Source: a virus. From it: a stretch of DNA of 64,000 nt. Shown piece after piece: positions 25,705 through 45,841 of this stretch. The notes below the pieces were generated by a model that did not search any database, was not told where the DNA came from, and saw only the letters and a list, made by a program, of their open reading frames with translations. Where the stretch lies: positions 13,080 to 77,079 of IMG/VR virus record IMGVR_UViG_3300033149_006357. One strand, given 5' to 3'. The first letter of the stretch is position 1. The number at the start of each line of letters is the position of its first letter. The position numbers were made by a program, and so were the translations under genes.

Positions 25705-26859
25705 CTAGTTAAAGACATCCAGCACAAAAACCTCTTGCGATGACTTTAGAACAGGGAATCCCTTGATCCCAACGCCAAGCTCGGTCGTCCACGGCGGTTT
25801 CTTCATCACGTCGATCCATGTGTACTTGCCCGGCTTATAGCTTTGATCCGGCCCTGCGGTCGGTGCCGTCGCAAGATATGCAATGTCTCCGCCAAGCGCA
25901 CCAGGCGGGATAATGATGACTTTGCCCGGCTTCAAGAAATGCACATGGTTCTCTGTAACACCGCTCTCGCTGCCCAGGTTGGTCTCGTATGTCCACACGG
26001 CAGAATATGTGAGAATGTTATATCCCAGCTTCGTCTCAAGGAAATCCTGCAGATCCGGGTAGTTCACAAAACGCTGACCGGTATCCGTTCCCTTGAACCA
26101 GTTGATCACATTGGGCCTGGTCGCCATGTATGACAACACATCCTCACCCATGATTACGGTTGCGCCACGGATAGGCATGTGAATGGTGTTCGCCATCAGA
26201 TCCCGCACGACCTCCAGGTCGAGGATCGGATCCGCGCTCGCGTGCTTCCAGTTATACCCGCCGCCGGATCGACTGTTGTAGCCAGAAAGAGAACTCACGT
26301 CCTGCTTGAAATTCGCTCTGAACTCCAGATCCAACGTGATGGACGCATTGCCCCAATACGCAGGAGCGCTCGTGATGGTGTTGCCATCATCATCTTTCGG
26401 CGGCCATGTGATCGTGCCTTGCAATGCCTGCAAACACAGGTACTCGATGGTCGCCTCTACCTCATCATCTGCGCTGGCAAGTTTCGTTCGCACGTGGCGT
26501 AGCGCTTTGTTGCGCTTGTTCGCCAGAACGCGGCTCTTGATGGCCAGCTCGCCAGGCTCGCGCAGCGTCATCACTGCTTCCTCGTCGAGCTTCCTGGCGG
26601 CCATGACGTTCATGACATCCGCCATGATCTGGTAAAACCCAGGATCATCCCCAGGGATTGGCGTACCGTCCATCGAGTAAATGCCAGCAATGCGATTCGC
26701 AGCACGCACAACATCCCACAGCACCTGATACTCGCCGATGTCTTTCTCCGGGAAGAATCTCCTACCAATATACTGTGCCCGCAACGCTTCCGACGTTGGC
26801 CTTTCCTTGACCATCGCGTCGAGAAACTTGGTTGTCAATACATTAGGAAAAGTAGCCAT
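25705..26859 (-). CDS. major capsid protein (lambda E-like, HK97 fold)
   Basis: 384 aa; FFP, E.LC.QAL.G.I, W....ADPI.DL and P-VL motifs. Confidence 0.88.
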   Translation of the reverse strand: MATFPNVLTTKFLDAMVKERPTSEALRAQYIGRRFFPEKDIGEYQVLWDVVRAANRIAGIYSMDGTPIPGDDPGFYQIMADVMNVMAARKLDEEAVMTLREPGELAIKSRVLANKRNKALRHVRTKLASADDEVEATIEYLCLQALQGTITWPPKDDDGNTITSAPAYWGNASITLDLEFRANFKQDVSSLSGYNSRSGGGYNWKHASADPILDLEVVRDLMANTIHMPIRGATVIMGEDVLSYMATRPNVINWFKGTDTGQRFVNYPDLQDFLETKLGYNILTYSAVWTYETNLGSESGVTENHVHFLKPGKVIIIPPGALGGDIAYLATAPTAGPDQSYKPGKYTWIDVMKKPPWTTELGVGIKGFPVLKSSQEVFVLDVFN

Positions 26860-27269: not shown

Positions 27270-28370
27270 CTACATCGCCCAAACTTCTTTGGCGAAGTCC
27301 TCGACATTATCGTCATCCTCGTTGCCAAGATCTCGGTCTTTATCGCCCTCGGTCTGCGTACTCAGCATAACGCTGCCGGGCAGGATATTGACCAGCCTGG
27401 CAATCGCTTTTCGGAAATACGCCACGACCTCATCCGCACTCCCCCTGTCCTCGAGCTTGACCGCATCGTCGCCATCGCCAATTGGCGCAAGGGACAGCGT
27501 ATCGCGCACCCAGTCCACGAAGACAGGCGGATGCCCCCTGCCATCATCGTCGCGGTAGTTCTCTGCGCTCATCACGACGTTATTCACGAGCGATTCGACC
27601 CACATCGCGCGATAACGATCCACAAGATCGCGCTGTTGATCTGCCTCGCTCTCAAGAGCCGTAAGGCGCTCTTCCAGCTCGCTCATCTCTGTCACAAGAC
27701 TATCCCGCTCTTCAACAAGCTGTCTGTACTCCTCAAGATTAATCTCGTTCATATCCTCCTCCAAATCATCCAGCGACATACGAATCTCTGGATGCTCCCA
27801 ATCTGGATGAAATTCGATGCTCGCGTACCTAAATTGGCCGTTCTTGATCACCTCCAGGCCGGTGGGAGTTGGCTTGACCAGTGCGCACAACCAGTCGCCA
27901 TTCATAAACAGATCCTCAAACCACCCAACTGCGCCAAAATCCGGTTTATGGCGATGATCTAGTGAGATATCTATCCCAACCCTGTTCATCTTGAAATTAT
28001 CGATGAACGACTGCAATGTAGCGTCATCGAACACAAGCTCGCCACCACGATACCTAAAACGGCCCCTCTTTACCAAATGGACAAGCAGCCGCTCGTCGCC
28101 CTCGTCCCCGATTATCTGAATCGGCGGCATATTTTTGATATGCGGCCTGTTCGTAATCGCGGCCCCAAGAACGGTAGGGCCAACTGTCTCCAAAATAAAT
28201 GTATCAAAAAAGTCGCCCATGACGCCCTTTTCTTTCAGCATCGCGGTGCAGATGGCATACGCCTGCTGCTCCGCATCCTGGCCCTCTTCCTTCGGTTCAG
28301 GACGAGAGCCCGGATCTTTCTTCCACTTCTCAAGAAGTGAGCTCACGCACCTCTCCAATGCTTCGGGCAT
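27270..28370 (-). CDS. Mu-like prohead protease/scaffold
   Basis: LGAAITNRP, DHRH, AVGW, G.FRYASIEF motifs, then an acidic coiled coil. Confidence 0.85.
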   Translation of the reverse strand: MPEALERCVSSLLEKWKKDPGSRPEPKEEGQDAEQQAYAICTAMLKEKGVMGDFFDTFILETVGPTVLGAAITNRPHIKNMPPIQIIGDEGDERLLVHLVKRGRFRYRGGELVFDDATLQSFIDNFKMNRVGIDISLDHRHKPDFGAVGWFEDLFMNGDWLCALVKPTPTGLEVIKNGQFRYASIEFHPDWEHPEIRMSLDDLEEDMNEINLEEYRQLVEERDSLVTEMSELEERLTALESEADQQRDLVDRYRAMWVESLVNNVVMSAENYRDDDGRGHPPVFVDWVRDTLSLAPIGDGDDAVKLEDRGSADEVVAYFRKAIARLVNILPGSVMLSTQTEGDKDRDLGNEDDDNVEDFAKEVWAM

Positions 28371-32271: not shown

Positions 32272-32300
32272 AGTATAACATTCCTATCCGCTAAAGTCAA
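32272..32300 (-). promoter_or_regulatory. sigma70 promoter
   Basis: TTGACT-17 nt-TATACT with extended TG. Confidence 0.75.
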
Positions 32301-35300
32301 AAAACTTTCCCAAGCTCAATGATCTTTTCCTCAAAGAATCGCGCAACGGGTTCCCACCTCAAATCTTGCAGTATATGAGATGACCGGTCTTTGAGGCGAT
32401 CCGCAAGTCCAGAAGTATACTTGATATCCAGTATCGCGTTCGCAACATCGACCGGGTCGGCCAACAAGAGCTTCGCCCCAGAATGCCAGGTCGTCCAGTG
32501 CTTCGGCCTCACCATGTAGCAATACTTTGAATGCACCTCCGACCTCACCATGCCATCCTCAACGGAGATCGTCGGTACGCCACATGCGGCCACCTCCAAC
32601 GGAGGCAGACCGAACCCCTCCGCACTGCTCACATCGACATATGCATCCATCAGCCCATACCGCGTGATCATATCCAGGTTGTTGAAAATCGCGCCCCTCA
32701 TCTGCGCCGATGGCGGCATGCTCAACAAATACTCGTCCAGTTCATCCCATCCGTTATACGGAACACCCTTCCACATATTCTCGAATTCGACCGGAAACAA
32801 GATATGTTTTGAAAGTGGCAGCCCAGTAAGCCTCTCCTCTCGCTCGATAATCCAGGGCAGATCCCATCCCTGCATAACATGGCGATTGTACTTTTTCGTG
32901 TGTAAATACAGGTATACATCATCCTCGCCCCTCTCAAGCAATATCTTCACGGCCTCGATCAAGTACGGCTGCTGTTTGACGCGCTTGTTCGTCCCAACAT
33001 TGCAAATCACAAACTTGCCATCAAAGCCAACCAGCTTTCGGTATCTCGACCGCTTCTCCTCGGACAACGGCGCAAATGGCGCGTGATCCATGCCATGATA
33101 CTGCCAAAAAACGCCAGTATCCTGACCAAATACTCTGTTTATTGCATCCACCCCGGACTTGCAATACGTCACGGCGACATTCACTTTCTCCACAAGCTGC
33201 ACGGTCGGCTTGTTGATGCCATCCCCCTCGACCGGGAAATACACGATCTTCGGAAGGGATCCCTGACCAAGCGCATCCAAAGACATCAGATGCGCCATAG
33301 CAGATCCGGGGTCGTAAAGCTCAAAATATACGTGTGGTTGAGCCCACCTCACAAACTCCGGCAGCATCTTATATCCCTGCAAATCATCCGGATGCATGGG
33401 GTAAAAATTGAACGGCAATTCGTCTTTCTTTGGCACATCCGTATCCATGATTCCAAATACGTACAGGTCAATATCGTCATTCTCGATAAGCCGCTTGTAT
33501 ATTTCGTTAACAACCACGCCGAAGCCGGTCGTCAACCTGGGGCTGTCCGCAACGGCCGCGACCCTGATCTTCCTCTTTGTAGTTATTACTTTGTTAACCT
33601 TTACCTCAAGCGCTAAACCGTTCACGCGATGGATCATATCGATAACCTGCGCAACATACCTCTCATCCGAATAAAACGAGTCGTCGGCGCACAAACTGAC
33701 CCCAAACGCATCATCGCCCCATGACGCAACATCCAATGTGATTTGCTTTAGCTCATCTACTGTTTTCCAGCGAAACCGATCCGGCACCGTTTCCCTGTGG
33801 CCACCAGCGTCAAACGCTATCGGCACACACCCAGCGCCCATGGCCTCCAATGGCACAAGGCCGAAATGCTCACACTCGTTCGGATAGTCTTTTCCATATA
33901 TCCCCTTAAAGCACCAGACCATCTTCGCCCCGCGATATAGAGACTCCAAATCGCCCTGAGGAATATCCTCGAGCAAAACGATATTATCAAGCCCTTTAAT
34001 GCTACTGGCAATCAGCTCCTCATACTCTGCAAACCTGCCCGTCTTTCCGCCAACGACGACGAGCTTCCAGCCATCCAGCTCCATCCTAACGAACTCATCG
34101 ATTGCCGCAAGCGGGGCTTTAAACGGATCAAGCCGCCCAACAAACAGGATAATATTCTCTTTCTTGCCAGGGCCGTATTTCGGCACAGAATGGTAAACCG
34201 GAAAGACACAGCTCCGATCTATGTTCCACCGCTTGCAAACCCATTCCGCTGTGAACTTTGAATTGGTCATGATCGCGCCGTAATCTTTTACATCTTTCAG
34301 CTTTCCGTCCGGGAAAAAGATGTACGCGAGGTAGCGCCTTGCTTTCACCGGTTTGAACAACTCGTGACCCATAACGATGCACACATCGTACTCATCCAGC
34401 TCATCTCCCTCCTCGTACCTAAAACCAAACAAGGACTCACACTCATCCGGAGAATAATAAGCATCCGTGAAAACAGGATATGCATCGATCCCGTTTTCCT
34501 GCAACAGATGCACGAGCTGATAAAACGATTTCTGTGCGCCACCCACACCGTGGCTGTGCTGACACCACACCGCAACGGTTGGTTTAAAATTGATCGCCCT
34601 AATCAAGGGCAGCCTCGATCTCCACTTTAAATTGTCCATGTACTGCGCCCTGCCGACATCCGCCGTCGCGCGTATCCCGCCAGATGCCTTGAGGTGTTGG
34701 CCAAACGCAGTCGGACAAATCACAAGCCTCTTCCCCGCCAGAAACAGCCTGTATGTCCCATCGGTCTCCTCGCCATGCGCCACGCCCGGCGAGTACACCT
34801 CTGGCCACCCGCCGACCTCGCGCATGGCATCGGCATTATACAGACAATTCGAGTATATATGTTCGACTTCCTGAAAATCATCTAGATCATGGTACATCCT
34901 TTGTTGCCAATTTGAGTTCCGAAACCCAACTCGCCCGGAGATCTCATCTTTCTTGTCAAGAGGAACTACCCCTACATGCGACATATCATGAAATACATCA
35001 TCGATATACTCCGACTCAAACCACAACCCACCGACCGCATCGACCTTTTTGTCGATCGCGGTATTCACCATGCTTTCAAGAACACGTCTCGATAATATGA
35101 TGTCGTCGTCGGCCCTGAATATGTATTTGTACCCCCTAAATCTCGGATCGTAAAGCGGGATGTTGTGATTATGTGCCTGGGAAATATGAGATCCCTCGAC
35201 AACAAAGACACCCCTGACAAGAGAGTGGAGGCCCAACAGAGCCTCTGTTGTTTTCGTCGCACCGACTTTCTCCGTTCCATCGTTGATAATAAGAATATCA

Positions 35301-35392
35301 AAATCCTGATACGTCTGCAACAACAAAGACGCCAAAAGCCTACCCAAAATAGAATCCCGATTTTTCGTGCTAATCTCAACCAGAATACGCAC
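32297..35392 (-). CDS. three-domain glycosyltransferase (GT2-like + two GT4-like)
   Basis: INDG, ADDD (DxD) and GEETD; EHFGLVPLEAM; TGFG and EGFGLPPLEVAA. GTG start with GGAGG RBS. Confidence 0.88.
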   Translation of the reverse strand: MRILVEISTKNRDSILGRLLASLLLQTYQDFDILIINDGTEKVGATKTTEALLGLHSLVRGVFVVEGSHISQAHNHNIPLYDPRFRGYKYIFRADDDIILSRRVLESMVNTAIDKKVDAVGGLWFESEYIDDVFHDMSHVGVVPLDKKDEISGRVGFRNSNWQQRMYHDLDDFQEVEHIYSNCLYNADAMREVGGWPEVYSPGVAHGEETDGTYRLFLAGKRLVICPTAFGQHLKASGGIRATADVGRAQYMDNLKWRSRLPLIRAINFKPTVAVWCQHSHGVGGAQKSFYQLVHLLQENGIDAYPVFTDAYYSPDECESLFGFRYEEGDELDEYDVCIVMGHELFKPVKARRYLAYIFFPDGKLKDVKDYGAIMTNSKFTAEWVCKRWNIDRSCVFPVYHSVPKYGPGKKENIILFVGRLDPFKAPLAAIDEFVRMELDGWKLVVVGGKTGRFAEYEELIASSIKGLDNIVLLEDIPQGDLESLYRGAKMVWCFKGIYGKDYPNECEHFGLVPLEAMGAGCVPIAFDAGGHRETVPDRFRWKTVDELKQITLDVASWGDDAFGVSLCADDSFYSDERYVAQVIDMIHRVNGLALEVKVNKVITTKRKIRVAAVADSPRLTTGFGVVVNEIYKRLIENDDIDLYVFGIMDTDVPKKDELPFNFYPMHPDDLQGYKMLPEFVRWAQPHVYFELYDPGSAMAHLMSLDALGQGSLPKIVYFPVEGDGINKPTVQLVEKVNVAVTYCKSGVDAINRVFGQDTGVFWQYHGMDHAPFAPLSEEKRSRYRKLVGFDGKFVICNVGTNKRVKQQPYLIEAVKILLERGEDDVYLYLHTKKYNRHVMQGWDLPWIIEREERLTGLPLSKHILFPVEFENMWKGVPYNGWDELDEYLLSMPPSAQMRGAIFNNLDMITRYGLMDAYVDVSSAEGFGLPPLEVAACGVPTISVEDGMVRSEVHSKYCYMVRPKHWTTWHSGAKLLLADPVDVANAILDIKYTSGLADRLKDRSSHILQDLRWEPVARFFEEKIIELGKVF

Positions 35393-36374
35393 AGTACGAC
35401 CTCCAATGCTTTGAAAACGAATCAAAATCGCAGTGAGATATAGCCCACTCTCTTGCCATGCCCACCTTGTACCTTCTATCCAATCTCCTCATGGCCTCCC
35501 TGACTGCATATGGCGAGATGTCATCCAGTATCTCGCCGCACCCGTCATCCATCTCGCATGCAAGGCCGGTCGTATATGTCACAAGCGGCACGTCGCACGC
35601 AAGAGCCTCCATCAACAGGTACGCGTTGCCCTCGTGCCTTGTTGGCGCGATCAACATCTTTGCTTGCCCAAGACGCCTCGCCTCTCTGGTCATTCTTCCA
35701 GAAAACTCATTCATTGGGGCAACTTCGATATCAAACAAATCATACAATGCACGAATTACGTCCGCCCCCTTCCTTGCGGACGTTGCCCCATGCATCAAAA
35801 GCTCGCCTCTCTCCTCTGGCGGCCTGTAAATGTCCAAAAATATGCCGTGATGAATAACCTCGACATCCTTATCGATCCCGGCGCGCCTCAGGTCATCCGC
35901 ACAGTCCTTGCTCACGCAGACGACATCGACGCTCTCATCGCTCCACAGATCGTGCTGGGCAAATACGTGGTCCATCCCAACCGCTTCGCCCCACGGATAC
36001 ACCTGAGACTGAAGCCACCTTCCAAAATACGAGCCATGAACAACGCTGATCAGGCGCCCGACTTTTCCCTGCAGGCCAGTACCCCAGTAACCATCCGCGA
36101 TCACGATCGTGCTGTCATCGACAATGCCGTTCTCCAGCAGGTACTCATTCAAAACGGCGGCGCACACATAATCCGGCTGCTTTACGTTGATCCACCCAGG
36201 GTAATCCGACCATGAGATCAACTTGAGGTCCGGGACCGCCTTGGACAGATAATAGGCAAACTTCTCAACACCGCCACACTGTATACCGACCTTATCATTT
36301 CTCTTGTACTTTGATACGTGTATGACATTCATCTTCGCTCCTTTCGGCAATAATCCACGCGGCCTTTTCGCCAT
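35376..36374 (-). CDS. GT4-family glycosyltransferase
   Basis: GGVEK, RKG and EGNAYLLMEALAC motifs. Confidence 0.85.
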   Translation of the reverse strand: MAKRPRGLLPKGAKMNVIHVSKYKRNDKVGIQCGGVEKFAYYLSKAVPDLKLISWSDYPGWINVKQPDYVCAAVLNEYLLENGIVDDSTIVIADGYWGTGLQGKVGRLISVVHGSYFGRWLQSQVYPWGEAVGMDHVFAQHDLWSDESVDVVCVSKDCADDLRRAGIDKDVEVIHHGIFLDIYRPPEERGELLMHGATSARKGADVIRALYDLFDIEVAPMNEFSGRMTREARRLGQAKMLIAPTRHEGNAYLLMEALACDVPLVTYTTGLACEMDDGCGEILDDISPYAVREAMRRLDRRYKVGMAREWAISHCDFDSFSKHWRSYCAYSG

Positions 36375-36819
36375 TCCAATCCGGATCGATCATTATCCCA
36401 TATACCACACACACCTCCTCGATCTTGTACACCACCATAGACAAGTTGCACTTGTCCACGGGCACATACATAAACAGCCTGCCGCCGATTTTCAGTTTTG
36501 GGATCACGCTATCGACCGCATCGCGCGGATGTACGTCATCCCATAGATCATCCAACAGGAAAGCGTTGTCTATAATCCCGTCCGCAGCGCCCTCTATATT
36601 CTTATTGATTATAATATCCACCAACGTCGGATGATCGCGCGCAAGCAGCTTGACCTCGCGCGGCAAATCGCCGACAAGCACCGCATACTCGGCGCGAACG
36701 TTATGGTTTATAGCGATGTATGGCCTATCTGTACGCGCAACCTGCATGCACAAACCCATTTCATCGCCCATAAAGTAGATAAAGTTTTTATCGTGCCAAT
36801 ACCATGTCTCTTTACCCAA
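36295..36819 (-). CDS. hypothetical protein (degenerate methyltransferase-like)
   Basis: LKIGGRLF..VP C-terminal MTase-like motif, but no clear motif I. Confidence 0.45.
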   Translation of the reverse strand: MGKETWYWHDKNFIYFMGDEMGLCMQVARTDRPYIAINHNVRAEYAVLVGDLPREVKLLARDHPTLVDIIINKNIEGAADGIIDNAFLLDDLWDDVHPRDAVDSVIPKLKIGGRLFMYVPVDKCNLSMVVYKIEEVCVVYGIMIDPDWNGEKAAWIIAERSEDECHTRIKVQEK

Positions 36820-37864
36820 AGTACCCTAAACCTCCTAACCTGTAACCGACGACCAGGTTCTCCTCTTCTGCATCGTAGTCGATCCCGTACTGGCTACAAT
36901 GCTGTCTCAGGCAGAACTCACCCATCGTGGCAAGCTCATCGCCGCCAATGCCCCCGCGATTCTCGAGCTCTATCGATACGCGATCCCCGTCTATCTTGCG
37001 CACAAACTGCGACCCATCCCCAAACACCACACCCCTGTGCCTCATGCGTGGCGGAGTATCCCCGGCCTGGCACACGTATGGTTTCTCGAAATCGGCGAGA
37101 TACAAATCCGTATCCAAAATGTGAGAGGCCAACAGGCTGTATACGCTGCCCGGGGAAAGCAGGGCATCGGGCGCCACAAGAACCCCCTTGTCGCTGTCGA
37201 TGGCGCGAATCTCCCTATTAACAATACACGGAACGTTCGTGAGAAAGTCATACAGCCCGAACCCATGCATTTTGATCCCGCGATCACCCAGACCCTCTCC
37301 GTGATCTGCGACTATGATTATCAGCGTGTTCTCCAGATCGATAGTCCACAAGAAATCCTGCATGGCAGAATCCACATATGCGGCCGCAGTGTCATACGAC
37401 CCGCCAGTATATTCTGTATGCATATCGTCCGTATGAACAACCACAAACCACGGGGCACCAGAGAACTTATTGATGATGTTTCCGGCAGCCCCGAATATGT
37501 CCATCCCAAGCCAACCCCTGCAATCGACATATACGTCCACGCCTCTCCTGTACCACCTGCTCAGGTTGGATACAAACCCAGTCCTGTACCCGGCAGTCTT
37601 CGCAAGCTGCGACAGCATTTCCACACCATCCGGAATTCTATAATCTCGAATTTCATACATCATAGAATACAAACCCAATTCATCCGGATGGCATCCACTC
37701 AGCATGTGCGTCATCGCAGGGTCCGTGCAATGGCTGGTCGACCAGTAATTCGTGAACAGTGTGCCGTAATCCTCCGCAAAAGAGCACAAGAACGGCATCT
37801 TGCTCGGTCGAACGCGATCCAGCCGCAAACAATCAACTACAATCAAAAGGGCAGAGCTAAGCAT
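36812..37864 (-). CDS. sulfatase-like / alkaline phosphatase superfamily enzyme
   Basis: IVVDCLRLD, CTDPA..MLSG, DMH, ADHGE, HG..LY....VP and RL..LGY motifs. Confidence 0.85.
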   Translation of the reverse strand: MLSSALLIVVDCLRLDRVRPSKMPFLCSFAEDYGTLFTNYWSTSHCTDPAMTHMLSGCHPDELGLYSMMYEIRDYRIPDGVEMLSQLAKTAGYRTGFVSNLSRWYRRGVDVYVDCRGWLGMDIFGAAGNIINKFSGAPWFVVVHTDDMHTEYTGGSYDTAAAYVDSAMQDFLWTIDLENTLIIIVADHGEGLGDRGIKMHGFGLYDFLTNVPCIVNREIRAIDSDKGVLVAPDALLSPGSVYSLLASHILDTDLYLADFEKPYVCQAGDTPPRMRHRGVVFGDGSQFVRKIDGDRVSIELENRGGIGGDELATMGEFCLRQHCSQYGIDYDAEEENLVVGYRLGGLGYFG

Positions 37865-37865
37865 T

Positions 37866-38432
37866 TCATTTCCTTTCTAACAGAAATCTCCATTCCCCAC
37901 CATGCTGTGGCCACGGCGGGGGATTGTTATAATCCACATCCTCATACTTTACGATTTTCAAATCGCAAAACAAAAAGTACCTCACCCAGGTCTGTCTGGG
38001 CAAGATACTCAAATGTGTCGATTCCGAGTACGCGCCTTTCTCAAGTCTCGGCACAACGACGATGCAATACCGCGCCATCTTCCTCCATGCATCCAGCGCC
38101 ACAACTGGAAACGGGGAATGCTCAAGCACGTGTCTCGCAAAAACAAGACCGAAATCACCGAATGCCTCGTGCATATCCATACAAACCACGTTCAGTCCGG
38201 CGGCAGACGCGTTTTCAAAATCTTTCCCAATTGCAGTGCCGGTCCACTCATACCCAAGCACCTCGAATATCGGCTTGCAAAAACCAGACCCACATCCAAC
38301 GTCCAGAACGGTCCGGCAGTCCAGATCTGGACACCACTTTTCTATCACGTCCCTTGCTAACCGTGTATGATTTGGATCTTGCGGCTGTGGTTTCGCAAAC
38401 CCGATCTGCTTATCAACGAGATGACTCAACAT
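37866..38432 (-). CDS. class I SAM-dependent methyltransferase
   Basis: VLDVGCGSG, DMH and HVLEH motifs. Confidence 0.88.
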   Translation of the reverse strand: MLSHLVDKQIGFAKPQPQDPNHTRLARDVIEKWCPDLDCRTVLDVGCGSGFCKPIFEVLGYEWTGTAIGKDFENASAAGLNVVCMDMHEAFGDFGLVFARHVLEHSPFPVVALDAWRKMARYCIVVVPRLEKGAYSESTHLSILPRQTWVRYFLFCDLKIVKYEDVDYNNPPPWPQHGGEWRFLLERK

Positions 38433-38982
38433 TTTTGACGAGCCTTACACTGATGTCCAACCCGCGCCTGACTACCATGTTATCCAGAACAAAACGCGTT
38501 CTGATACCATAGTCAGAGAACCTGTCAACAAATGGCTCCCCACCTCTCAGGCAGAAATAATCAAAGCTTTTCTCCGAAAACCAATTTCTGTGTGTCGGGT
38601 CGCCAAATGCCCACGGACTCAAAAAATGCGGCACGCAATGCTCCGCTGCACCACCATTTTTCAGAACCCGCCACGTCTCATTCATAAAGTAGATGAAAGA
38701 ATCCCTGGAAATGTGCTCAAGAAACTGGTTCGACTTGATCAAATCCACAGACTCGTCCGGCAACGGAATCCCGAACTCCAGATCGTAATAGATGTCGCAG
38801 TGATAATCCGCCGATGGATCCAGCCCGATCCAAATCTCGCTTTCATGTCCCGTACTTTTCCTGCCCGGGCCTAGCTCAACTACAATCCTATCGAGGCGCT
38901 TCCTCGCAACGATATCGTCAAATACTCGTTTCAGCGGAAGCTCGCAAGCCACGACATTTGGCAAATTATATGGATAACTCAC
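38413..38982 (-). CDS. class I SAM-dependent methyltransferase
   Basis: VELGPG, FLEH, RVLKNGG, VP and DPTH motifs. Confidence 0.88.
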   Translation of the reverse strand: MSYPYNLPNVVACELPLKRVFDDIVARKRLDRIVVELGPGRKSTGHESEIWIGLDPSADYHCDIYYDLEFGIPLPDESVDLIKSNQFLEHISRDSFIYFMNETWRVLKNGGAAEHCVPHFLSPWAFGDPTHRNWFSEKSFDYFCLRGGEPFVDRFSDYGIRTRFVLDNMVVRRGLDISVRLVKNVESSR

Positions 38983-39302
38983 ATCAATCTCCTTGCCCTC
39001 AAAAACAAAAAGCGGTTCGTGCCAACGATAGCCCCCTCACCAAGAGACACATCCACCTTCACCGGGATAAAGTACACAAATGGATACTCCCTCAGCCTCA
39101 ACAGGCTTGGCACGCCGCCCCCTCTGGATAAATGGTACTTGACTACCCGCTCCAATACCCTGTGCATATTCTTATCTGTAACAAAGTTGGCCCCAAATGC
39201 GCCCTCCAGCGACTCCTTCTCAATCCTATCCACAGGTATGCCACACACATTCACATAATTATCCCTGATCCCGCTCGCTATTCTCATTTTCCTCTTCCTC
39301 AT
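38979..39302 (-). CDS. hypothetical protein
   Basis: Coupled ORF. Confidence 0.5.
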   Translation of the reverse strand: MRKRKMRIASGIRDNYVNVCGIPVDRIEKESLEGAFGANFVTDKNMHRVLERVVKYHLSRGGGVPSLLRLREYPFVYFIPVKVDVSLGEGAIVGTNRFLFLRARRLM

Positions 39303-41277
39303 CGCTAAACGGATCGAAATCGATTCCGTAGATCATCGACCACTTTGCGCGCTCACTCTCCTTCCATGCCTGAATGTACTCGTCATCCTCCTCCAGGCTT
39401 TTCGGTGTGCCTTTAAGCATCCACTCAGTGTACCTTGAATTCCTGGACATTTTCATCGGCGGAAACTCGATGCTTTTCCCATCGTTGCTCGCGTGAACCA
39501 TGTTGACCCATTTCCACGCCTTTTCGACATCGCCGTTGGATGCAACATACGCAAGGTACGACACATAGTTTACATATGGTCTGTACGACATATATTTGGC
39601 GGACCCAACCATATATGCCGAAAGCATATCCGTCATCGCCTCCTCGTATTTAAGGATGTTTTTGTCCTTCGTCAAAAACTTTGCGCCTCCTTTTCTCGCC
39701 CTTGAATGAATGATCTCATGTGTTATGACATAACGCGCAAATTCCTTGTTCTTGGACATCATCTTCCTGCCACGTTCTGTAAAAAATACCTTGCCCTCCT
39801 CCGGGCTCCAGAACCCAAGCGACTTGTCTATCCCTGGATAATTTTTATACACAGAATCCTCCGCTTTGCCAAATCCAACCTTGTTGATCCCGGAAATCCT
39901 TGACGAGACGCCAGACAGCGTATCATTAAACAGCCCAGAATCGACAGCGTATTCTTTGCTTGTGAACTTTCCCGCCTTATCATGGTACGGATTCGCAAGC
40001 TCCACTTCCTCGAGCGATTTGGCTTTGGCCATCTGCTCTACAAATGACAAGTCCGTATCGCCAAAGCCAGCCAGATCCTTTACGGTATCTTTTATCGCAT
40101 TGATGATCGCCTTTTTCACGCTGACGGACACAGCCGTCAGGCCAGCCGCATGCACGGTATCGATAATAAAACGCCTCGACCTTACATCGCCGCGTTCTAT
40201 TGTTCTCATCCCTGTGAGATCCGAGTAGCCGCCATGCGCGCCGCCGATCAGATCTGAAATGCGACCGGCGTTCCACCTGACATACGCATACACACCGATC
40301 GGCGAGATTCGCTTTCCGGTCTTCGCCGACAAATCGCGCGCGATCTCTGCCCACGAGGATCCATTCAAATGCTTTTCATCGGCCCACGCATTTGCCTTTC
40401 GCCTGTTACCATCGCCCATGTACAGCGCTATTCTAGACACTGCATCAGACTGCTTTATATTCGCGGGATGCCGCGGGATCTTCATCTTCGACCCAATCAG
40501 CGACTCCGAAAGACCGTTTTCGAGACCGCTCCCGAATATTCTCGATAGGAACCCCTGTTTTCTAGCTCTCGGCCTGCCACGTACCATTCCATACGCTATA
40601 GTGCGCTTCACAAAGTCATCCTCTCTTTTTGTCCTGCGCTCCCTACGCAACAATCCGGCAACATATGGGTTCAAATGTATTCTCCTGGCACCAGGCTCAC
40701 GAACAAACACGGCAGAGGACGAGAAACGGCGCTTGATACCAGATGCCAGCATGTAACTTGTTAAACTCTTATGGACCCTGACAACCGCATTCGGATTTCT
40801 AAGACCTTTTGGAACCCTCTTTGTCACATCCCTGATTACGCTTGCCGCACGACGGCGATCCTCTTTCGTATACCCCACCTCTCCAAGCGCACCCTCTCCA
40901 AGCACAACTGCGGCAGATGCAAGAAACTTTTTACTCTTTAACAGCTTTGCCGATTCCATACCAAGGTGTGTACCAAACGTTTTCCCAATAATGGTCACCG
41001 CATGCTTGATATCTGTAAACCTGCCAGCTATGTCATGGTAAGGATTTGCAAGATCGATAGACATTTCCACGTTGAGATTGACAGGCCCAGACGCGGCGGC
41101 GACCGTGGAATACGACATCAAAATCTCACGGACATCCTGCTCATCGAGGCCATACTTTGGAGCCATCTCAAACATTTTCTTGGCAAGACCCTCGATCACG
41201 GTCTCATCTTCTGCGCCCCTGATCACATCTGCCAAGACGCCATCATCGTATTCAAGCGTTCTATTGGAGCCTGCCAT
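39259..41277 (-). CDS. protein with two LANPYHDxxG[RK]FT motifs, one degenerate and one intact zincin domain
   Basis: DLANPYHDIAGRFT...AYGMVR...ENG and ELANPYHDKAGKFT...THEIIH...EEA; paralogous to 41337..42566. Confidence 0.7.
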   Translation of the reverse strand: MAGSNRTLEYDDGVLADVIRGAEDETVIEGLAKKMFEMAPKYGLDEQDVREILMSYSTVAAASGPVNLNVEMSIDLANPYHDIAGRFTDIKHAVTIIGKTFGTHLGMESAKLLKSKKFLASAAVVLGEGALGEVGYTKEDRRRAASVIRDVTKRVPKGLRNPNAVVRVHKSLTSYMLASGIKRRFSSSAVFVREPGARRIHLNPYVAGLLRRERRTKREDDFVKRTIAYGMVRGRPRARKQGFLSRIFGSGLENGLSESLIGSKMKIPRHPANIKQSDAVSRIALYMGDGNRRKANAWADEKHLNGSSWAEIARDLSAKTGKRISPIGVYAYVRWNAGRISDLIGGAHGGYSDLTGMRTIERGDVRSRRFIIDTVHAAGLTAVSVSVKKAIINAIKDTVKDLAGFGDTDLSFVEQMAKAKSLEEVELANPYHDKAGKFTSKEYAVDSGLFNDTLSGVSSRISGINKVGFGKAEDSVYKNYPGIDKSLGFWSPEEGKVFFTERGRKMMSKNKEFARYVITHEIIHSRARKGGAKFLTKDKNILKYEEAMTDMLSAYMVGSAKYMSYRPYVNYVSYLAYVASNGDVEKAWKWVNMVHASNDGKSIEFPPMKMSRNSRYTEWMLKGTPKSLEEDDEYIQAWKESERAKWSMIYGIDFDPFSDEEEENENSERDQG

Positions 41278-41336
41278 AAAAAACCCCGCAAATCAGATTA
41301 GCCCGGCCCGAAACCATTCCTCTGTATAATCGGATA

Positions 41337-42566
41337 TCACCCGCGTATCGCATCCGTGGCATCCGACACGCCATCAGACCCGCCCATCCCTATCTCCTGC
41401 GCGGTGGCCAGCACCGCACTTATCAGCGCCCGCTTCGCTCTTGCGGCAACGTACACAGACGGTATGCCAGATGCGGCATATGCCCAAAAACGCCCCATGT
41501 TTATCTTGCCCTTTTCCCTTGGAATACCGGTAAGTTTGTTATAGCCGCCATCTGGGCTCCCGATAAGCTTGGCGAGCTTGCCGCGGCCATTTTTAACATA
41601 AGCGAAAACATGAAACGGCGAAACGTTCGTGCCAAGAGCGGCCGATAGATCCCTGGACACATCCATCCACCTGGACCCGGCAAGATGTTTGTCCTCGATC
41701 CATTTCATCGCCTTTGTCCTACTTCCGCCAACCTTGAGCGCCATCGTCGATACGGCATCTGAATACGCCTTGTAACCAGGAGACCCCCAGCGCGTGTATT
41801 TCGACGATATGGTATCTGTAAACCCTTCTTCGATCGACATACCAAGTACATACGAAAGCGCCCCCCTGCGCTTCGTGCGCCTTCTGGTGTGAACCAACTC
41901 ATGGGCAACTGTGTGCTCGGCCCTCCTGCGCTCCAAATTGGTTTTGTCCTTCTTTCCAAGCAAATGCGAGATAAACGGGCTGATGTGCGCGTTGCGGTTT
42001 CCAAGCCTGGTCACAAAACCAAACGACAATATAGAAGTTGGGGACCCCCTCCCCGACACGACATACGACAGCTCGCCAGGATGGGTACGAACAACGGCTC
42101 TTGGATGCCTAAGACGCCCTGGAATCTTTTTGTAAACACCCTGCACCGACCTCTTTCGCTCCGCGCTGCTGCCAACCGATTGCACATTGCCGGCGACCTG
42201 CAAACCGAGCGCAGAATATAGAGCAGCGCGAAACATCTTGCTTTTCATCAGTTCCGCAGATTCTCTAATCATATTCTTGCCGAATGACACCCCGATGGCC
42301 ACAACAGCATTTTTTGCATTAGTAAACCTTCCAAGCTCATCATGATATGGGTTTGCGAGCTTCCTCGTTTGATCCGCATGCACGATATGGCCATCCATAT
42401 ACGCTTCTTCTGCGGCAATAGAAAGCTGGAAAAGCGCCTCCGATCTGGTAATGCCAGCTTTCTCTGTGGCCTCCATTGCTTTCAAAAAGAAATTGTATAC
42501 ATCTCTTGGGCTTTTCGTTCCCCTAAGAAAAAGCACAACGTCTTCTCTACTCATCTTTCCCTCCAA
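41337..42566 (-). CDS. protein with a LANPYHDELGRFT motif and an HExxH metallopeptidase domain
   Basis: AHELVH...IEEG gluzincin-like pattern; immediately downstream of the portal. Confidence 0.7.
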   Translation of the reverse strand: MEGKMSREDVVLFLRGTKSPRDVYNFFLKAMEATEKAGITRSEALFQLSIAAEEAYMDGHIVHADQTRKLANPYHDELGRFTNAKNAVVAIGVSFGKNMIRESAELMKSKMFRAALYSALGLQVAGNVQSVGSSAERKRSVQGVYKKIPGRLRHPRAVVRTHPGELSYVVSGRGSPTSILSFGFVTRLGNRNAHISPFISHLLGKKDKTNLERRRAEHTVAHELVHTRRRTKRRGALSYVLGMSIEEGFTDTISSKYTRWGSPGYKAYSDAVSTMALKVGGSRTKAMKWIEDKHLAGSRWMDVSRDLSAALGTNVSPFHVFAYVKNGRGKLAKLIGSPDGGYNKLTGIPREKGKINMGRFWAYAASGIPSVYVAARAKRALISAVLATAQEIGMGGSDGVSDATDAIRG

Positions 42567-44247
42567 AATCTATGTAAAACCTTTTTTGGTATGATATCCT
42601 TTCTGCCATTTCTGGACTAAGCACGATCGGAACTCTCGCGCCGGCCGCTATTTTCGATGTAATCGACTCAACTACGCCCTTATCCGACGGCGGCCCAGCA
42701 AACTCCGAGATATCCTCTGGCGATGGCTCATCGAAGCCCTCTTCCTCAGGAGAAAAATCCTCTGCCGCGTCAAGCAGCTCATCCTCTTCGCTGGTATCTT
42801 TGACTGGAATGTTGCTGACGCGGTACACCTCTTTCCAATCGATCTTTGTAAGAGCGCTGGATTTCGGATCGTTCCCGGCAATAGAGATCAGCTTGAACAT
42901 CCGCTCCTTCTCGTATGGATCGTACCCCTCCGTGGAGATAATCGCGGGTGGCGCGTTGTTGCCAAAGTTGTATTGCACCAACTGCGGCACAACGTACCGA
43001 TTGATCTGCGTCAGTAAAGAGGCCAGTATATGCTCGTTGTGCAACATCGTAACCGCAAGATGTGTGCGTGCGCTCGCATATCCGCCGACAGCGCTCTGCT
43101 CAATAGACTGATCCCCGATCACAAGAGACCGGACGATAAGCGTCCCGAGTGTCTCGATAGCATCCACAAACTGCGCCGCCCGTTTATCATCCGACAAATA
43201 CTCAAGCCGCCATGCTTCTTTCCCGCTATCCGGATCCGTATCGCTTGGCAATGCAATGGCGTTTGACTTTGCGACGTTCGTAGCAACAAGAAATGCGTAT
43301 TTCATCGTTCCCATCGCCGTGCCATCCGGCTGCAATATCTGCCCTCTGGATGGTGCGTAGCACACTGTCACCGGAGTGCCAGTACGCTCCAGATATCTCA
43401 CAAACGCGCGAAGTGCAATATCATACCACACCCAGTACGGGTATACAGGCTGTAACGCGCTCTTGCCCCAGATGTTGCGAAACTTTTTATCGTGCGTCAA
43501 AATAAGGGCGACATCTCTCGGAACTCTGATCTCGTCTTTTCCCGTAACCTTCTGCACATACCCGTTGAACTCGCCACGGCTTGTGTATAAAACCCGATCG
43601 ATGGTGCGCGGGTTGACGGGCTTGATGCTGCGATACCCTATATATGTTTTTCTTCCGTCGATCCCCCAAAAACGCGCGGGCTGCCTGTCGAACTCCTTTT
43701 CGCCAAAATACGCCCCATAAGCGAGACACTCCATGAAATCATTAGCATGCTGCCGAAACACCCTGCCAACCAATGCTTGAATCGCAACCTTGATCTTCTC
43801 GTCCCGACAATCGACATACCACGACAATGGATCCCTGAGTGCCGATCGGATCCATGCCTTCTTCATCTCCAGCGCAAAAACAACCTGCCCGCTCTTCAGC
43901 ATATCATCGATGCGGTCGAACGACAGCGCATCCTCTGGACGATACACGCCACCGCTGCCGAAAATAACGCCAAACATATCCTCCTGATCGTCCCCGACTG
44001 TGAGGTTCGACATCATCTTCGGAGCCTTCATCTCTGCCTCGAGCTCCTCCAAAATCGGGATGGCCGCATCACCAACGAGGGACACAAGCTGCCTTGCGAT
44101 AGGCTTCGGGACAGAAGAGGCTTTGGATAGTATGCGACGCTCTTCTTTCAATCTCTTCCTGTCCAGGGCCGCACATCTTCTCGAACAATAATATTTACCG
44201 CTGCGCACCTTATTATCGCAACCAGGACGAGAACAAATCTCAGACAT
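42547..44247 (-). CDS. portal protein (Mu gp29/DUF935-like)
   Basis: L.YG....E, WG.S.L..VY..W, F...LER.G.P and L..NFG motifs; follows TerL. Confidence 0.88.
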   Translation of the reverse strand: MSEICSRPGCDNKVRSGKYYCSRRCAALDRKRLKEERRILSKASSVPKPIARQLVSLVGDAAIPILEELEAEMKAPKMMSNLTVGDDQEDMFGVIFGSGGVYRPEDALSFDRIDDMLKSGQVVFALEMKKAWIRSALRDPLSWYVDCRDEKIKVAIQALVGRVFRQHANDFMECLAYGAYFGEKEFDRQPARFWGIDGRKTYIGYRSIKPVNPRTIDRVLYTSRGEFNGYVQKVTGKDEIRVPRDVALILTHDKKFRNIWGKSALQPVYPYWVWYDIALRAFVRYLERTGTPVTVCYAPSRGQILQPDGTAMGTMKYAFLVATNVAKSNAIALPSDTDPDSGKEAWRLEYLSDDKRAAQFVDAIETLGTLIVRSLVIGDQSIEQSAVGGYASARTHLAVTMLHNEHILASLLTQINRYVVPQLVQYNFGNNAPPAIISTEGYDPYEKERMFKLISIAGNDPKSSALTKIDWKEVYRVSNIPVKDTSEEDELLDAAEDFSPEEEGFDEPSPEDISEFAGPPSDKGVVESITSKIAAGARVPIVLSPEMAERISYQKRFYIDFGGKDE

Positions 44248-45841
44248 CTACCAAATCGACCTCCCTGGTATTCTCCGGCGGTACAAGATCCTCATAAGTG
44301 TTGCCGGTATCTCTCATACGCACAAACTCGCTCATACTGATACCATCATCAACTACGGCGTCCACTGCGCGGCGACCGGAAAACGAGTTCGTATCCAGTT
44401 CCAACACGAACCCGCCATTCTTGTGAAGCTCCGAATACGCAAGCGCAAACGCGATCACTGGATCGTCATAGTATCCACCGGCGGCCTCTGCCTTTCCATC
44501 TCCAATATCCTGAAATGCGACAAAGCAGGAATATGTGAACGGATCGCGGATAACTACCTGTTTCCCAGCGATAGCCGTACGCAAGAGGTTAAGCATGCGC
44601 ATCTTCGATGTTCTGCCCCTCGCGCCAGCCTTCGTGCGTCGACCAATAACATACGAATCTGGATCCGCAAGTCGCATCGAATGCCTGAAATACACCATAT
44701 CGCCAGCACCAAACCTCTCTATGACCATCGCCCCTGGGTACTTTCTGTGATGCTTCGAGACAACGCCATCTACGTTCACGAGCTTCCCGTCATCCATCGC
44801 CATGGTATACCCGGCGACCTGCTCGACAGGCGTGCTGTTGGAATGCCAGCTCGCTATCTCTACCCCATATTCGTTCAGCGTAATGATCGAGGTGTAATCG
44901 CCGCCGCCGCCCTCTGCGACATCCACGCCCGTGTAACTCATCTTCGTCGGCCGATCTATGCGCGTGCCCCCAAGCCACAACTCAGGATGCTTTTCCTTTG
45001 GCTTATAGCAATCGGCAAGAGCTTCCTGGTCGAAGAATGGAGAGCCGGATGCAACGAATTCCAGCTCGAACTCCTGCGCGATCTGGTATGGCGTAAGCCC
45101 GCTGGTCGCAGTCTTGTACCACTCCTCCGAAAGGCCGCAATCTTTCCAGTAGGCCCGAATCGGATGGAAATGATCGTCGATCCCGTGTATCGCCGCCTGC
45201 CAGATCCTGAAGAAAAAGTTTGATGTGCCGTTCGGCGTACTAATGATCAACATCTGCCCTCCATGTGACGCCGCGGGCCGGATAGCCTCCCACGTCTCCT
45301 CGCTATTCGGCAAGTGCGCCGCCTCGTCCAACACAACAAGCGTCGCGCTGTAACTCGCGCCGCTTCTTCCCGTCGTCGTAAGAGAGTCAATCGAACTCTC
45401 TTTAACGATGATGGTATTTCCGTCCACCTTCCTGAAAATGACGCTGAAACGCGTCTGGGAGTTGGTCCCGATATCCGGCCTTAGAAATGACGGAAGGTGG
45501 TTATACATAAACTTTACATAGCCAAGCAGCCGGATCGCCTTTTTCTCTTTCTCGGAAAGGAAAAGAACCTCAACGTCCGGATGGAACAATATCTTCCACA
45601 AGCAGTATCCGGCGGCGGCCCAGCTACACCCTATCTGGCGGGTTTTGTTGACGATGATATCCTCGCCGGCCTGCAGCCTTTCCCACAACTCGATCTGGTA
45701 TGGATATGGCGGGTCTTTCTTCCACGAAATAGCACCGCGAGATGTATGCTTGATCCACCCATAGTTCTCAAGAAAATATCTCGCGCTTTTGGCGCACTTG
45801 ACAAACTCTTCTTTTTGTTTCGCGTTAAGCGGCCTGTTCAT
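44240..45841 (-). CDS. terL: terminase large subunit
   Basis: KTRQIGCS (Walker A), VVLDEAAH (Walker B), ISTPNG, GVDVA and DDPVIA nuclease motifs. Confidence 0.95.
   Translation of the reverse strand: MNRPLNAKQKEEFVKCAKSARYFLENYGWIKHTSRGAISWKKDPPYPYQIELWERLQAGEDIIVNKTRQIGCSWAAAGYCLWKILFHPDVEVLFLSEKEKKAIRLLGYVKFMYNHLPSFLRPDIGTNSQTRFSVIFRKVDGNTIIVKESSIDSLTTTGRSGASYSATLVVLDEAAHLPNSEETWEAIRPAASHGGQMLIISTPNGTSNFFFRIWQAAIHGIDDHFHPIRAYWKDCGLSEEWYKTATSGLTPYQIAQEFELEFVASGSPFFDQEALADCYKPKEKHPELWLGGTRIDRPTKMSYTGVDVAEGGGGDYTSIITLNEYGVEIASWHSNSTPVEQVAGYTMAMDDGKLVNVDGVVSKHHRKYPGAMVIERFGAGDMVYFRHSMRLADPDSYVIGRRTKAGARGRTSKMRMLNLLRTAIAGKQVVIRDPFTYSCFVAFQDIGDGKAEAAGGYYDDPVIAFALAYSELHKNGGFVLELDTNSFSGRRAVDAVVDDGISMSEFVRMRDTGNTYEDLVPPENTREVDLVDV

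Follow-up and report, generated by a model that had tools for sequence, protein, structure and literature searches.

Polyvalent proteins are multidomain proteins that are encoded beside portal and terminase genes and are predicted to be packaged and injected; the HExxH metallopeptidase is their commonest component, often in multiple copies, and both portal and MuF fusions have been described (Iyer, Burroughs, Anand, de Souza, Aravind 2017, J Bacteriol, PMC5512222). The two open reading frames considered here, ORF A and ORF B, lie in a window (the whole stretch of viral DNA that was analysed) of 64,000 nucleotides. They resemble polyvalent proteins in that B, the second gene downstream of the portal (ORF A being the first), has two zincin modules (B1 and B2), and in that the relatives of A and B combine a portal with two to four modules; it is from those fusions that we infer virion packaging. 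They differ in being split here, with the portal, over three genes, and the A- and B2-type zincins match no LPD model. Among the MuF polymorphic toxins of temperate phages, 20% of the toxin domains are metallopeptidases (Jamet et al. 2017, BMC Biol, PMC5576092); the MuF trafficking mode was treated by Zhang et al. 2012 (PMC3482391). A and B occupy the same slot past the portal and share the arrangement of a head-protein anchor followed by variable toxin domains, and MuF is among the commonest domains upstream of the junction motif described below. However, there is no MuF domain in A, in B, or in the genome, and the anchor here is the portal.

The capsid targeting sequence of T4 is a short N-terminal element on unrelated, often basic internal proteins (IPI-III and Alt), which enter the prohead and are injected with the DNA; it has about 10 residues ending in L/I-x-E, goes with the gp21 prohead protease, and is specific to T4-like phages. 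The likeness to the present motif, a short element shared by unrelated, often basic proteins, is one of analogy only: the leaders here have 65-75 aa, the motif sequence is unrelated, the protease is Mu gpI-like, and the motif is also internal and repeated, in phages with diverse proteases. The NPTH of FlhB/YscU/EscU and the Asn-Pro self-cleavage of reovirus mu1 belong to the asparagine peptide lyases, with Asn-Pro-x-His within a turn. The phage motif starts with N-P-[YFHNW]-[HR], which is a four-residue resemblance only; the folds are unrelated, and 12/291 copies have Arg at the fourth position. NPTH-like chemistry, if applicable, would work without a partner protease, so that the motif could stay conserved in viruses whose proteases differ. 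ArdC is an anti-restriction protein that is transferred with DNA. ArdC (PDB 6SNA), SprT/Spartan (6MDX), and IrrE/ImmA have a small gluzincin-like core and are among the structural matches of B2; they are DNA-associated zincins, and A and B1 are strongly basic. However, they have no sequence match to B2, their scores are low and tied with those of many zincin families, and neither an ArdC-N nor a SprT zinc-ribbon domain was detected here.

The first phage weapons that host defences meet are the proteins injected along with the DNA, which are hard to recognise by sequence. A and B would belong to a known kind, the head-packaged polyvalent or MuF-type effectors, with packaging a prediction from the relatives; what appears to be novel is the zincin family of A and B2 and the junction motif.

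Gene order and module layout

The TerL gene precedes the portal gene, which is followed by ORFs A and B (Table 1). The earlier note had set the modules beside a Mu-type portal, and the match of the upstream gene to PF06074 agrees with this; it had also recognised no MuF, and PF04233 indeed had no match at E ≤ 1 in a six-frame search of the 77-kb genome, and none in A or B. The Mu gpI-like protein is the only recognisable head protease able to process cargo. The 107 aa ORF downstream of B belongs to no Pfam or PHROG family, and no immunity gene was identified for A or B.

ORF A most likely starts at the ATG at 42554 (405 aa) rather than at the TTG at 42566 (409 aa). The ATG overlaps the portal stop codon as ATGAGTAG, with a GGAGG Shine-Dalgarno sequence ahead of it, and the portal/A junction is thus explained as translational coupling. 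This would correct the 42566 boundary of the earlier note. A programmed frameshift fusing the portal to A was ruled out because a TAG lies five codons upstream of the A start, in the A frame.

Table 1. Features of the portal-ORF A-ORF B region and of the head genes in the window
Feature	Position	Strand	Description
Mu-type portal	42547..44247	-	566 aa, Cys-rich N-terminal segment; PF06074 E 1.9e-21, phrog_113 E 2.6e-26
ORF A	41337..42554	-	405 aa; 65-aa near-neutral leader, motif, basic A-type zincin module and C-terminal extension
Junction motif copy 1	42303..42362	-	KLANPYHDELGRFTNAKNAV; core NPYHDELGRF 42324-42353
Catalytic signature of A	41814..41903	-	HELVHTRRR (HELVH at 41889-41903), then EEGFTD (EEG, 41814-); HExxH and downstream Glu-Glu intact
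ORF B	39259..41277	-	672 aa; acidic 75-aa leader, motif, B1, acidic linker, motif, B2, acidic tail
Junction motif copy 2	40996..41055	-	DLANPYHDIAGRFTDIKHAV; core 41017-41046
Degenerate active site of B1	40504..40593	-	YGMVRGRPR (YGMVR at 40579-40593), then ENGLSE
Junction motif copy 3	39943..40002	-	ELANPYHDKAGKFTSKEYAV; core 39964-39993
B2 module as modelled	39262..40032	-	257 aa; hairpin, helix, three-stranded sheet, HEIIH helix (HEIIH at 39706-39720), EEAMTD helix (39628-39645), helical C-terminal subdomain
ORF downstream of B	38979-39302		107 aa
Mu gpI-like prohead protease/scaffold	27270..28370	-	PF10123 E 1e-7, phrog_328 E 5e-8
Major capsid protein	25705..26859	-	phrog_29 E 3.7e-29, PF03864 E 1e-15

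A and the first 410 residues of B are paralogous (35% identity); A matches B1 at E 1e-61 and B2 at E 6e-7. B1 is a dead A-type module, its YGMVR and ENG aligning to the HELVH and EEG of A with the His, Glu, and His all substituted, and B2 is a short zincin module with an intact signature. All of the strings pointed out before this analysis (HELVH/EEG, YGMVR/ENG, and HEIIH/EEA) were found again, in A, B1, and B2, respectively. The acidic or neutral leaders and K/R-rich bodies, described at the same time, are borne out by the net charges (K+R minus D+E): -1 for the leader and +30 for the body of A and, in B, -9 for the leader, +34 for the B1 body, -4 for the inter-module linker, and +6 for the B2 body. 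In this phage, A and B are separate from the portal, and their leaders of 65-75 aa match nothing with a known targeting role.

The zincin-like modules and their portal-fused relatives

A and B2 retain the predicted gluzincin metal-binding and catalytic residues, which B1 has lost. Residues H105, E106, H109, E130, E131, and Y150 of B2 are invariant in 30 homologues. In the AF2 model of B2 (pLDDT 86.2, pTM 0.83), strands 53-56, 73-76, and 81-84 lie ahead of the HExxH helix (96-109), and E130/E131, 21-22 residues past H109, sit in helix 124-142; the junction motif is modelled as a hairpin (pLDDT 72-76). B1 has no HExxH. Nearly all of the top 50 VIA matches of B2 are zincins, with Z values of at most 8.3, near the VIA background for unmatched models (LTA4H 8.3, thermolysin 6.7, minigluzincins 6.4, ArdC 5.5, Spartan 5.2). 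The best Foldseek match is collagenase H (E 0.07), and the best BFVD match is SprT-like. A zincin-like fold and signature is thus supported by prediction for the modules, from the signature and the uniformity of the structural matches, with individual scores that are modest and would not suffice by themselves; this accords with the earlier assignment of zincin modules, one of them a pseudo-protease. Full-length B, modelled in AF2 from a two-sequence alignment, gave a pLDDT of 36.5 and was unusable, and no confident model was obtained for the A-type module, C-terminal half included. ESM Atlas leads were weak (TM below 0.5): DUF2268, M90/ATLF, M78, and one MuF-containing viral cluster.

Neither A nor B matched Pfam at E ≤ 0.1, nor any PHROG. 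Single-sequence and profile searches of both against PDB sequences gave no match, a word-indexed homologue search returned only themselves or one fragment, and tblastn against GenBank phages found nothing; a search for related loci found none with A and one with profile A6. Among curated peptidase families, M91, DUF2268, SprT-like, Zn_peptidase_2, and YgjP were matched, weakly, by single distant homologues only. As judged by these comparisons of sequence, the zincin family of A and B2 is new, in that no Pfam, PHROG, or LPD model matches it.

Relatives were found by a profile search of 1.84 billion representatives, which yielded 49, and 30 of these were aligned; Portal_Mu is present in 16/30. 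They include portal fusions of 1000-1900 aa, and homologues of ORF A are found in P0003, P0005, P0007, P0008, P0009, P0010, and P0026. In the 1588 aa P0003, the order is portal, motif at residue 587, A-type module, motif at about 1001, and B2-type module. The two modules are 30% (A-type) and 29% (B2-type) identical to those of the window, and residues 1-551 of the window portal are 47% identical to residues 1-574 of P0003. Because the nearest relatives have these modules, ordered as here, on one polypeptide with the portal, the portal, A, and B can be read as a three-gene split of a portal-cargo fusion. A location of A and B in the capsid likewise has strong, if indirect, support because the closest homologues extend the portal covalently at its C terminus, the fusions being what suggests packaging. 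Note that this zincin family, which is in no catalogue and is joined to Mu-type portals in some cases and split from them in others, as here, is a natural experiment on cargo attachment at the portal vertex. Nearly every HExxH in this family lies 90-150 residues past a motif.

The junction motif in the window and in other viruses

A six-frame scan of the whole window gave three copies of NPYHDxxG[RK]F, all on the minus strand and all within ORF A or ORF B; the window is otherwise without copies, and the corresponding degenerate DNA pattern has three matches as against 0.00 in 100 shuffles. The three copies seen previously are therefore the full set, and the AV that was said to follow each of them does lie four residues past GRFT/GKFT in 3/3. 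With its flanks, the motif covers about 20 residues: [IVL]-x-K-[FAY]-NPYHDxxG[RK]F-[TAS][TS]xxxA[AV]. The three copies diverge at synonymous sites, which means that conservation is at the protein level only, and a DNA repeat or recombination joint was ruled out on this ground.

Cataloguing the domains attached to the motif, as the earlier note had suggested, returned at least 120 motif loci in IMG/VR and 96 in cellular genomes, those of archaea included (e.g., Nitrososphaera and Methanobrevibacter). The 10-residue core is nearly invariant across viruses of bacteria and archaea. Upstream of the motif are portal (15/43), MuF (9/43), and S78_2 protease (6/43) domains, and an independent genome set gave portal in 19/60, MuF in 4/60, and proteases in 5/60. 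Downstream, three ADP-ribosyltransferase Pfam families are matched by 15, 6, and 4 segments, with possible overlap between these sets, and other domains include DUF3626, zeta toxin, Gln deamidase, and 2'-5' ligase/Acb1-like phosphoesterase types; overall, the motif heads effector-type domains of more than 20 unrelated kinds. Copies are spaced at a median of 300 aa, and up to 10 copies occur in one ORF, of 2811 aa. A Gly/Ser/Ala/Pro-rich stretch usually follows at +12 to +30 outside the zincin family, and about 5% of motif proteins stop shortly past the motif without cargo, some with a short Arg-rich tail. Motif-bearing phages differ in their prohead proteases, which belong to several unrelated families (Mu gpI-like, XkdF, HK97-type, and ClpP-like).

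The census thus ties the motif, as a real and portable element, to phage head genes. The idea that it is a tag of zincin modules specifically did not survive: this zincin family is present in only 2/120 motif-bearing IMG/VR loci, and any HExxH lies 60-220 residues past only 12/122 motifs. Judged from these counts, the motif is generic in tailed viruses and not zincin-specific, and, because it is found widely between head-interior proteins and toxin-like domains, it probably marks capsid-carried proteins. No NCBIfam or Pfam model covered it in 131 motif-bearing segments; a literature search with motif strings returned nothing relevant, and the main texts of PMC5512222, PMC5576092, and PMC3482391 do not describe it. 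A tblastn search of motif contexts against cultured phages had one true match, the portal of the Nitrososphaera provirus Pro-Nvie1; the matches to Vibrio phages were false.

Possible roles of the proteins and of the motif

Our preferred reading, to which we give a probability of about 0.6, is that A and B are the detached cargo of portal-polyvalent fusions and are packaged, injected zincins, the motif being a generic junction element. What is one polypeptide in the nearest relatives would here be divided among three late genes in the same orientation (portal, A, and B), with A translationally coupled to the portal. Each module would consist of an acidic, probably helical spacer, the junction motif, and a basic gluzincin-type metallopeptidase domain of the pattern HExxHxRxR, about 20 residues, EEGxT[DE]. 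A and B would be incorporated into the prohead, at the portal or close to it, from the gene slot that MuF holds in other Mu-like head modules, and would travel with the DNA; once ejected, the active zincins may target host (defence) proteins or their cargo partners, by analogy to what has been proposed for polyvalent-protein metallopeptidases. The motif would link effector domains of many unrelated kinds to short leaders or to anchors in the head interior (portal, MuF, or prohead protease), either as a release site (cut by a protease, or self-cut at Asn-Pro in the NPTH manner) or as a docking hairpin that tethers cargo in the head. We weight these two about equally: the motif proteins without cargo fit poorly to a pure release site and, together with the flexible Gly/Ser/Ala stretch, make a tethered docking peptide as plausible as a cleavage site, and the several unrelated prohead protease families argue against a single protease specificity. 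More tentatively, the motif could be a universal, previously unnamed capsid-cargo junction signal of the tailed viruses that infect bacteria and archaea, a hairpin of about 20 residues that holds cargo or cleaves itself at Asn-Pro, though we lean against so broad a claim. If true, it would be a genome-wide marker for injected effectors, as MIX or RxLR are elsewhere, and a portable tag for directing foreign proteins into capsids; should it serve to load or release cargo, searching any virome for the pattern would yield candidate effectors delivered from the capsid, many unannotated domains included.

Another possibility, which we also consider somewhat improbable, is that the motif serves for docking or tethering and is never cut, much like encapsulin cargo-loading peptides, its small hairpin on a flexible linker binding a conserved feature of the procapsid interior or the packaged DNA, and that the modules stay intact. 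The modelled hairpin of B2 would suit such a role, as would the Gly/Ser/Ala/Pro-rich stretch (an arrangement of targeting peptide, linker, and cargo), the proteins that finish at the motif and a short Arg-rich tail, and the differing protease families of motif phages. However, a docking peptide would be redundant on portal or MuF fusions, yet giants with 6-10 copies retain the motif at each of their junctions; moreover, the portal, MuF, and capsid families of these phages are diverse, with no single conserved partner evident. We think it unlikely that the zincins are instead head-maturation enzymes that cut junction motifs in cis or trans within the prohead and are not injected effectors. The position of the family's HExxH past a motif is what such an enzyme might show, PMC5512222 predicts autoproteolysis for polyvalent-protein metallopeptidases (likewise proposed for P1 DdrB), and a dead B1 kept beside active copies fits a substrate or scaffold role. 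Against this, a zincin so rare at motif loci cannot be the general processing enzyme of the motif, and the genome already has its Mu gpI-like prohead protease.

Less probable again is the view that A and B are unpackaged late cytoplasmic proteins, such as host-takeover or lysis-timing proteases, and that their position reflects fusion ancestry. Their being separate genes here, with leaders of no known targeting role, would allow it, but A is translationally coupled to the portal gene, the gene order is collinear with the covalent portal fusions of the relatives, all three junction motifs are kept (and elsewhere the motif is tied to head proteins), and internal head proteins typically have such a basic charge. 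We give hardly any credence to conservation of the motif solely as a recombination joint for cassette swapping, in the manner of polymorphic toxin junctions, with no biochemical role. The motif does lie exactly at the border between conserved anchors and highly variable C-terminal domains; homologous recombination, however, needs DNA identity, whereas the copies differ synonymously even within one genome, and the ten core residues are conserved in viruses of both bacteria and archaea, a sign that selection acts on the peptide.

Gene order around the portal and its fused relatives

The source record is a complete 77,079-bp IMG/VR virus genome with direct terminal repeats, of which the window is part. 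Behind the terminase and the Mu-type portal genes on the minus strand lie ORF A and ORF B, which encode three modules, A in the former and B1 and B2 in the latter (see the table). Each module is headed by the sequence NPYHDxxG[RK]F, here called the junction motif, which occurs three times in the window and only within these two ORFs; the corresponding DNA pattern gave three matches, versus none in 100 shuffles. The three copies use different codons, and conservation is thus at the protein level. The bodies of the modules are basic (net charge +30 in A, +34 in B1, and +6 in B2), and the segments ahead of them, leaders and linker, are acidic or neutral. A MuF head morphogenesis domain (PF04233) was found nowhere in the whole genome. 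An earlier note had described the same number of motif copies, the acidic or neutral leaders ahead of basic domains, and the lack of a recognizable MuF, and all of these descriptions stand.

ORF A most likely begins at ATG 42554. A GGAGG precedes this codon, which shares bases with the portal stop (ATGAGTAG), an arrangement that indicates translational coupling of A to the portal. A long frameshift fusion of the portal with A was ruled out by an in-frame TAG five codons upstream of the A start.

Head-region features of the window in minus-strand order
Feature	Coordinates	Strand	Content
TerL	44240-45841	-	Terminase_6N, phrog_2
Mu-type portal	42547-44247	-	566 aa; PF06074, E 1.9e-21
Portal residues 1-24	44176-44247	-	Cys-rich start
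ORF A	41337-42554	-	405 aa; module A (HELVH/EEG)
ORF B	39259-41277	-	672 aa; modules B1 (YGMVR/ENG) and B2 (HEIIH/EEA)
107-aa basic ORF	38979-39302	-	no Pfam or PHROG family
Glycan-type cassette	32297-38982	-	GT2+GT4+GT4 fusion glycosyltransferase (1042 aa), another GT4, sulfatase/AlkP-like enzyme, two SAM methyltransferases
LamG-domain protein	28762-30447	-	561 aa; LamG/concanavalin-like domain (PF13385, E 1e-17)
Mu gpI-like protease/scaffold	27270-28370	-	
Decoration protein		-	
Major capsid protein	25705-26859	-	

Ordinary homologue searches with A and B returned no relatives; 49 emerged when a profile was searched exhaustively against 1.84 billion representatives. The long relatives start with a Mu-type portal domain (six of the eight scanned individually and 16 of the 30 in the alignment). 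One of these homologues, P0003, is a single chain of 1588 aa, in which residues 1-574 are 47% identical to residues 1-551 of the window portal; 12 residues past the portal match it carries 'QLANPYHDPFGRF' and then an A-type module (30% identical to A), and a second motif near residue 1001 is followed by a B2-type module (29% identical to B2). Both the order and the size of this protein match the three window genes (566 + 405 + 672 aa), which are thus a collinear split of one portal-cargo polypeptide. Because portal C-termini point into the head, the portal fusion is the strongest available indirect support for the modules residing in the capsid. We infer that the A and B cargo is packaged, processed, and ejected. 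In the relatives, nearly every HExxH has the motif 90-150 residues upstream, the variants taking the form NP[YFHNW][HR]DxxG[RK]F.

Several neighboring features deserve mention. The portal has an unusual N-terminus, beginning with a Cys-rich segment (C-x4-C ... C-x3-C, 'CSRPGCDNKV...YYCSRRC') that is kept in P0003 and looks like a small zinc ribbon. The 107-aa ORF shares 44 nt with the acidic 3' end of ORF B; its product could, in principle, inhibit the zincins or confer immunity to them, or have nothing to do with them. The glycan-type cassette of ~7 kb sits inside the head module and separates the portal cargo from the capsid genes, and the LamG protein among the head genes may be a lectin-like decoration on the capsid surface.

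The zincin-like modules

ORF A aligned with residues 8-409 of B (35% identity, E 1e-61) and, more weakly, with residues 426-595 (E 6e-7); all three modules are therefore related. Their homologues have in common the signature HExxHxRxR, followed after 10-20 residues by EEGxT[DE]. In B1, the active-site His, Glu, and His are replaced by Tyr, Gly, and Arg, and EEG is replaced by ENG; judged by these residues, B1 cannot bind metal in the canonical manner. The 30 sequences of the B2-type alignment are invariant at H105, E106, H109, E130, E131, and Y150, and an AF2 model of B2 from that alignment (pLDDT 86.2, pTM 0.83) has a three-stranded sheet ahead of the HExxH helix and the Glu-Glu pair on the following helix. 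Structure searches with the B2 model matched almost exclusively zincin peptidases: M1 aminopeptidases and LTA4H (Z 8.3-7.4), and further thermolysin, collagenases, minigluzincins, M32, ArdC, Spartan, and BepA. A viral structure library added SprT-like, lethal-factor-like, and polyvalent proteins. Each score was individually modest, so that the zincin assignment rests on the signature and the uniformity of the matches. The A-type module gave no confident structure model. The earlier reading of the modules as zincins is supported by the signature of A and B2; B1 has lost it and is the single dead copy that had already been noted.

Distribution of the junction motif, its anchors and its cargo

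A census using a degenerate DNA pattern of the motif found at least 120 loci in IMG/VR and 96 in cellular genomes (596 Gbp in total, each prokaryotic species represented by a single genome), about nine of the latter being estimated chance matches and four falling in tiny frames. The taxa include Alphaproteobacteria, Clostridia, Verrucomicrobiota, Chloroflexota, Bacteroidota, Actinomycetota, and the archaea Nitrososphaera and Methanobrevibacter. Among the carriers are strains in culture: Novosphingobium sp. JCM 18896 (L163), N. anseongense (L174), Chryseobacterium lacus (L191), Azospirillum aestuarii (L197, L204), Corynebacterium hylobatis (L182), and Sphingosinithalassobacter portus (L183). 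No model in Pfam or NCBIfam covers the motif, and we found no paper that mentions it. Across 136 non-redundant contexts, the consensus block from -4 to +16 reads [IVL]-x-K(77%)-[F/A/Y]-NPYHD-[E]-x-GRF-[T/A/S]-[T/S]-[A/G]-x-G-A-[A/V], after which comes a mildly basic stretch rich in Gly, Ser, Ala, and Pro. Two or more copies occur in 55 of the 187 distinct motif ORFs, at a median spacing of 300 residues, the maximum being 10 in a 2811-aa ORF. Three giant ORFs (L091:3997-11787 (-), L100:1699-10131 (-), and P0035; 2597, 2811, and 2295 aa) carry 6-10 motifs, one per ~300 residues, with the variant NPWHD eight times in P0035, and look like polyproteins of motif-delimited modules. One subfamily (L050:4912-5361 (-), L012, L021, L055, L062, L089, L103, and L109) has the longer block EKFNPYHDxxGRFxxxxxxxxFTxxTxDPxKQHxADxAxAREK, suggesting a small folded unit rather than a bare linear motif in some lineages.

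The domains attached to the motif, a catalogue that the earlier note had proposed, link it to head-interior and effector proteins. Upstream segments of at least 150 aa (n = 43) included 15 portals, nine MuF domains, and six XkdF-type prohead proteases, and the same families recur in the gene upstream of proteins with an N-terminal motif; the independent cellular-genome set (n = 60) gave 19 portals, four MuF, five proteases, and three TerL. Downstream, three Pfam families of ADP-ribosyltransferases account for 15, six, and four segments, with possible overlap, alongside DUF3626, zeta toxin, Gln deamidase, 2'-5' ligase/Acb1-like phosphoesterases, GNAT, and others; the majority of downstream segments have no Pfam family. 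The A-type/B2-type zincin family was present in only two of the 120 listed IMG/VR motif loci, and any HExxH lay near only 12 of 122 motifs. Thus, the motif is not a zincin feature, nor is the A/B2 zincin its general processing enzyme.

Among the upstream neighbors of proteins with an N-terminal motif (alignment A4), three contain a eukaryotic-type topoisomerase IB core (PF01028, E 3e-31) and others NADAR, HD, ParB_N, or DNA methylase domains; these may be more packaged enzymes in the same arrays. In the Nitrososphaera provirus Pro-Nvie1 (FR725450.1, L129:2819-4835 (+)), 'EFNPYHDERGRFAS' lies 60 residues from the C-terminal end of the portal, and the overlapping gene that follows encodes a RelA/SpoT-like protein, which looks like another split portal-toxin arrangement.

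Possible roles of the zincins and the motif

The most attractive reading is that the zincins would be DNA-riding proteases directed at host proteins. It is favored by how strongly basic A and B1 are, by a weak resemblance in structure between B2 and both ArdC and SprT, and by published proposals on polyvalent-protein metallopeptidases (PMC5512222); the main alternative is that they process the cargo itself. Effectors of the polyvalent or MuF type that are packaged in the head, frequently carrying metallopeptidase domains, are a known kind of system (PMC5512222, PMC5576092, PMC3482391). New here are a zincin family (A-type and B2-type) absent from existing catalogues, its occurrence either split from or fused to Mu-type portals, and an explicit, testable junction motif common to viruses of bacteria and archaea.

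The motif itself could be a release site or a tethered docking hairpin. Release is favored by its persistence at all the junctions within multi-module proteins, where a targeting signal would be superfluous, and by its position after prohead proteases and portals. The flexible linker that usually follows it is more in keeping with docking, as are its occurrence alongside unrelated protease families and the 10 of 194 motif proteins (~5%) that stop shortly past it, with nothing but a brief Arg-rich tail. The NPTH sequence of FlhB/YscU undergoes self-cleavage; by analogy, a hypothetical self-cleavage at Asn-Pro-x-His would make a role in release compatible with such diverse proteases. Some proteins have no cargo domain and end 7-25 residues past the motif (L048, L078, L165, L168, and L191; Arg-rich tail, e.g., '...NPYHDERGRFTSEDNARRRGGFGSRNRRNN*'), so that the motif may act in its own right on the anchor protein.
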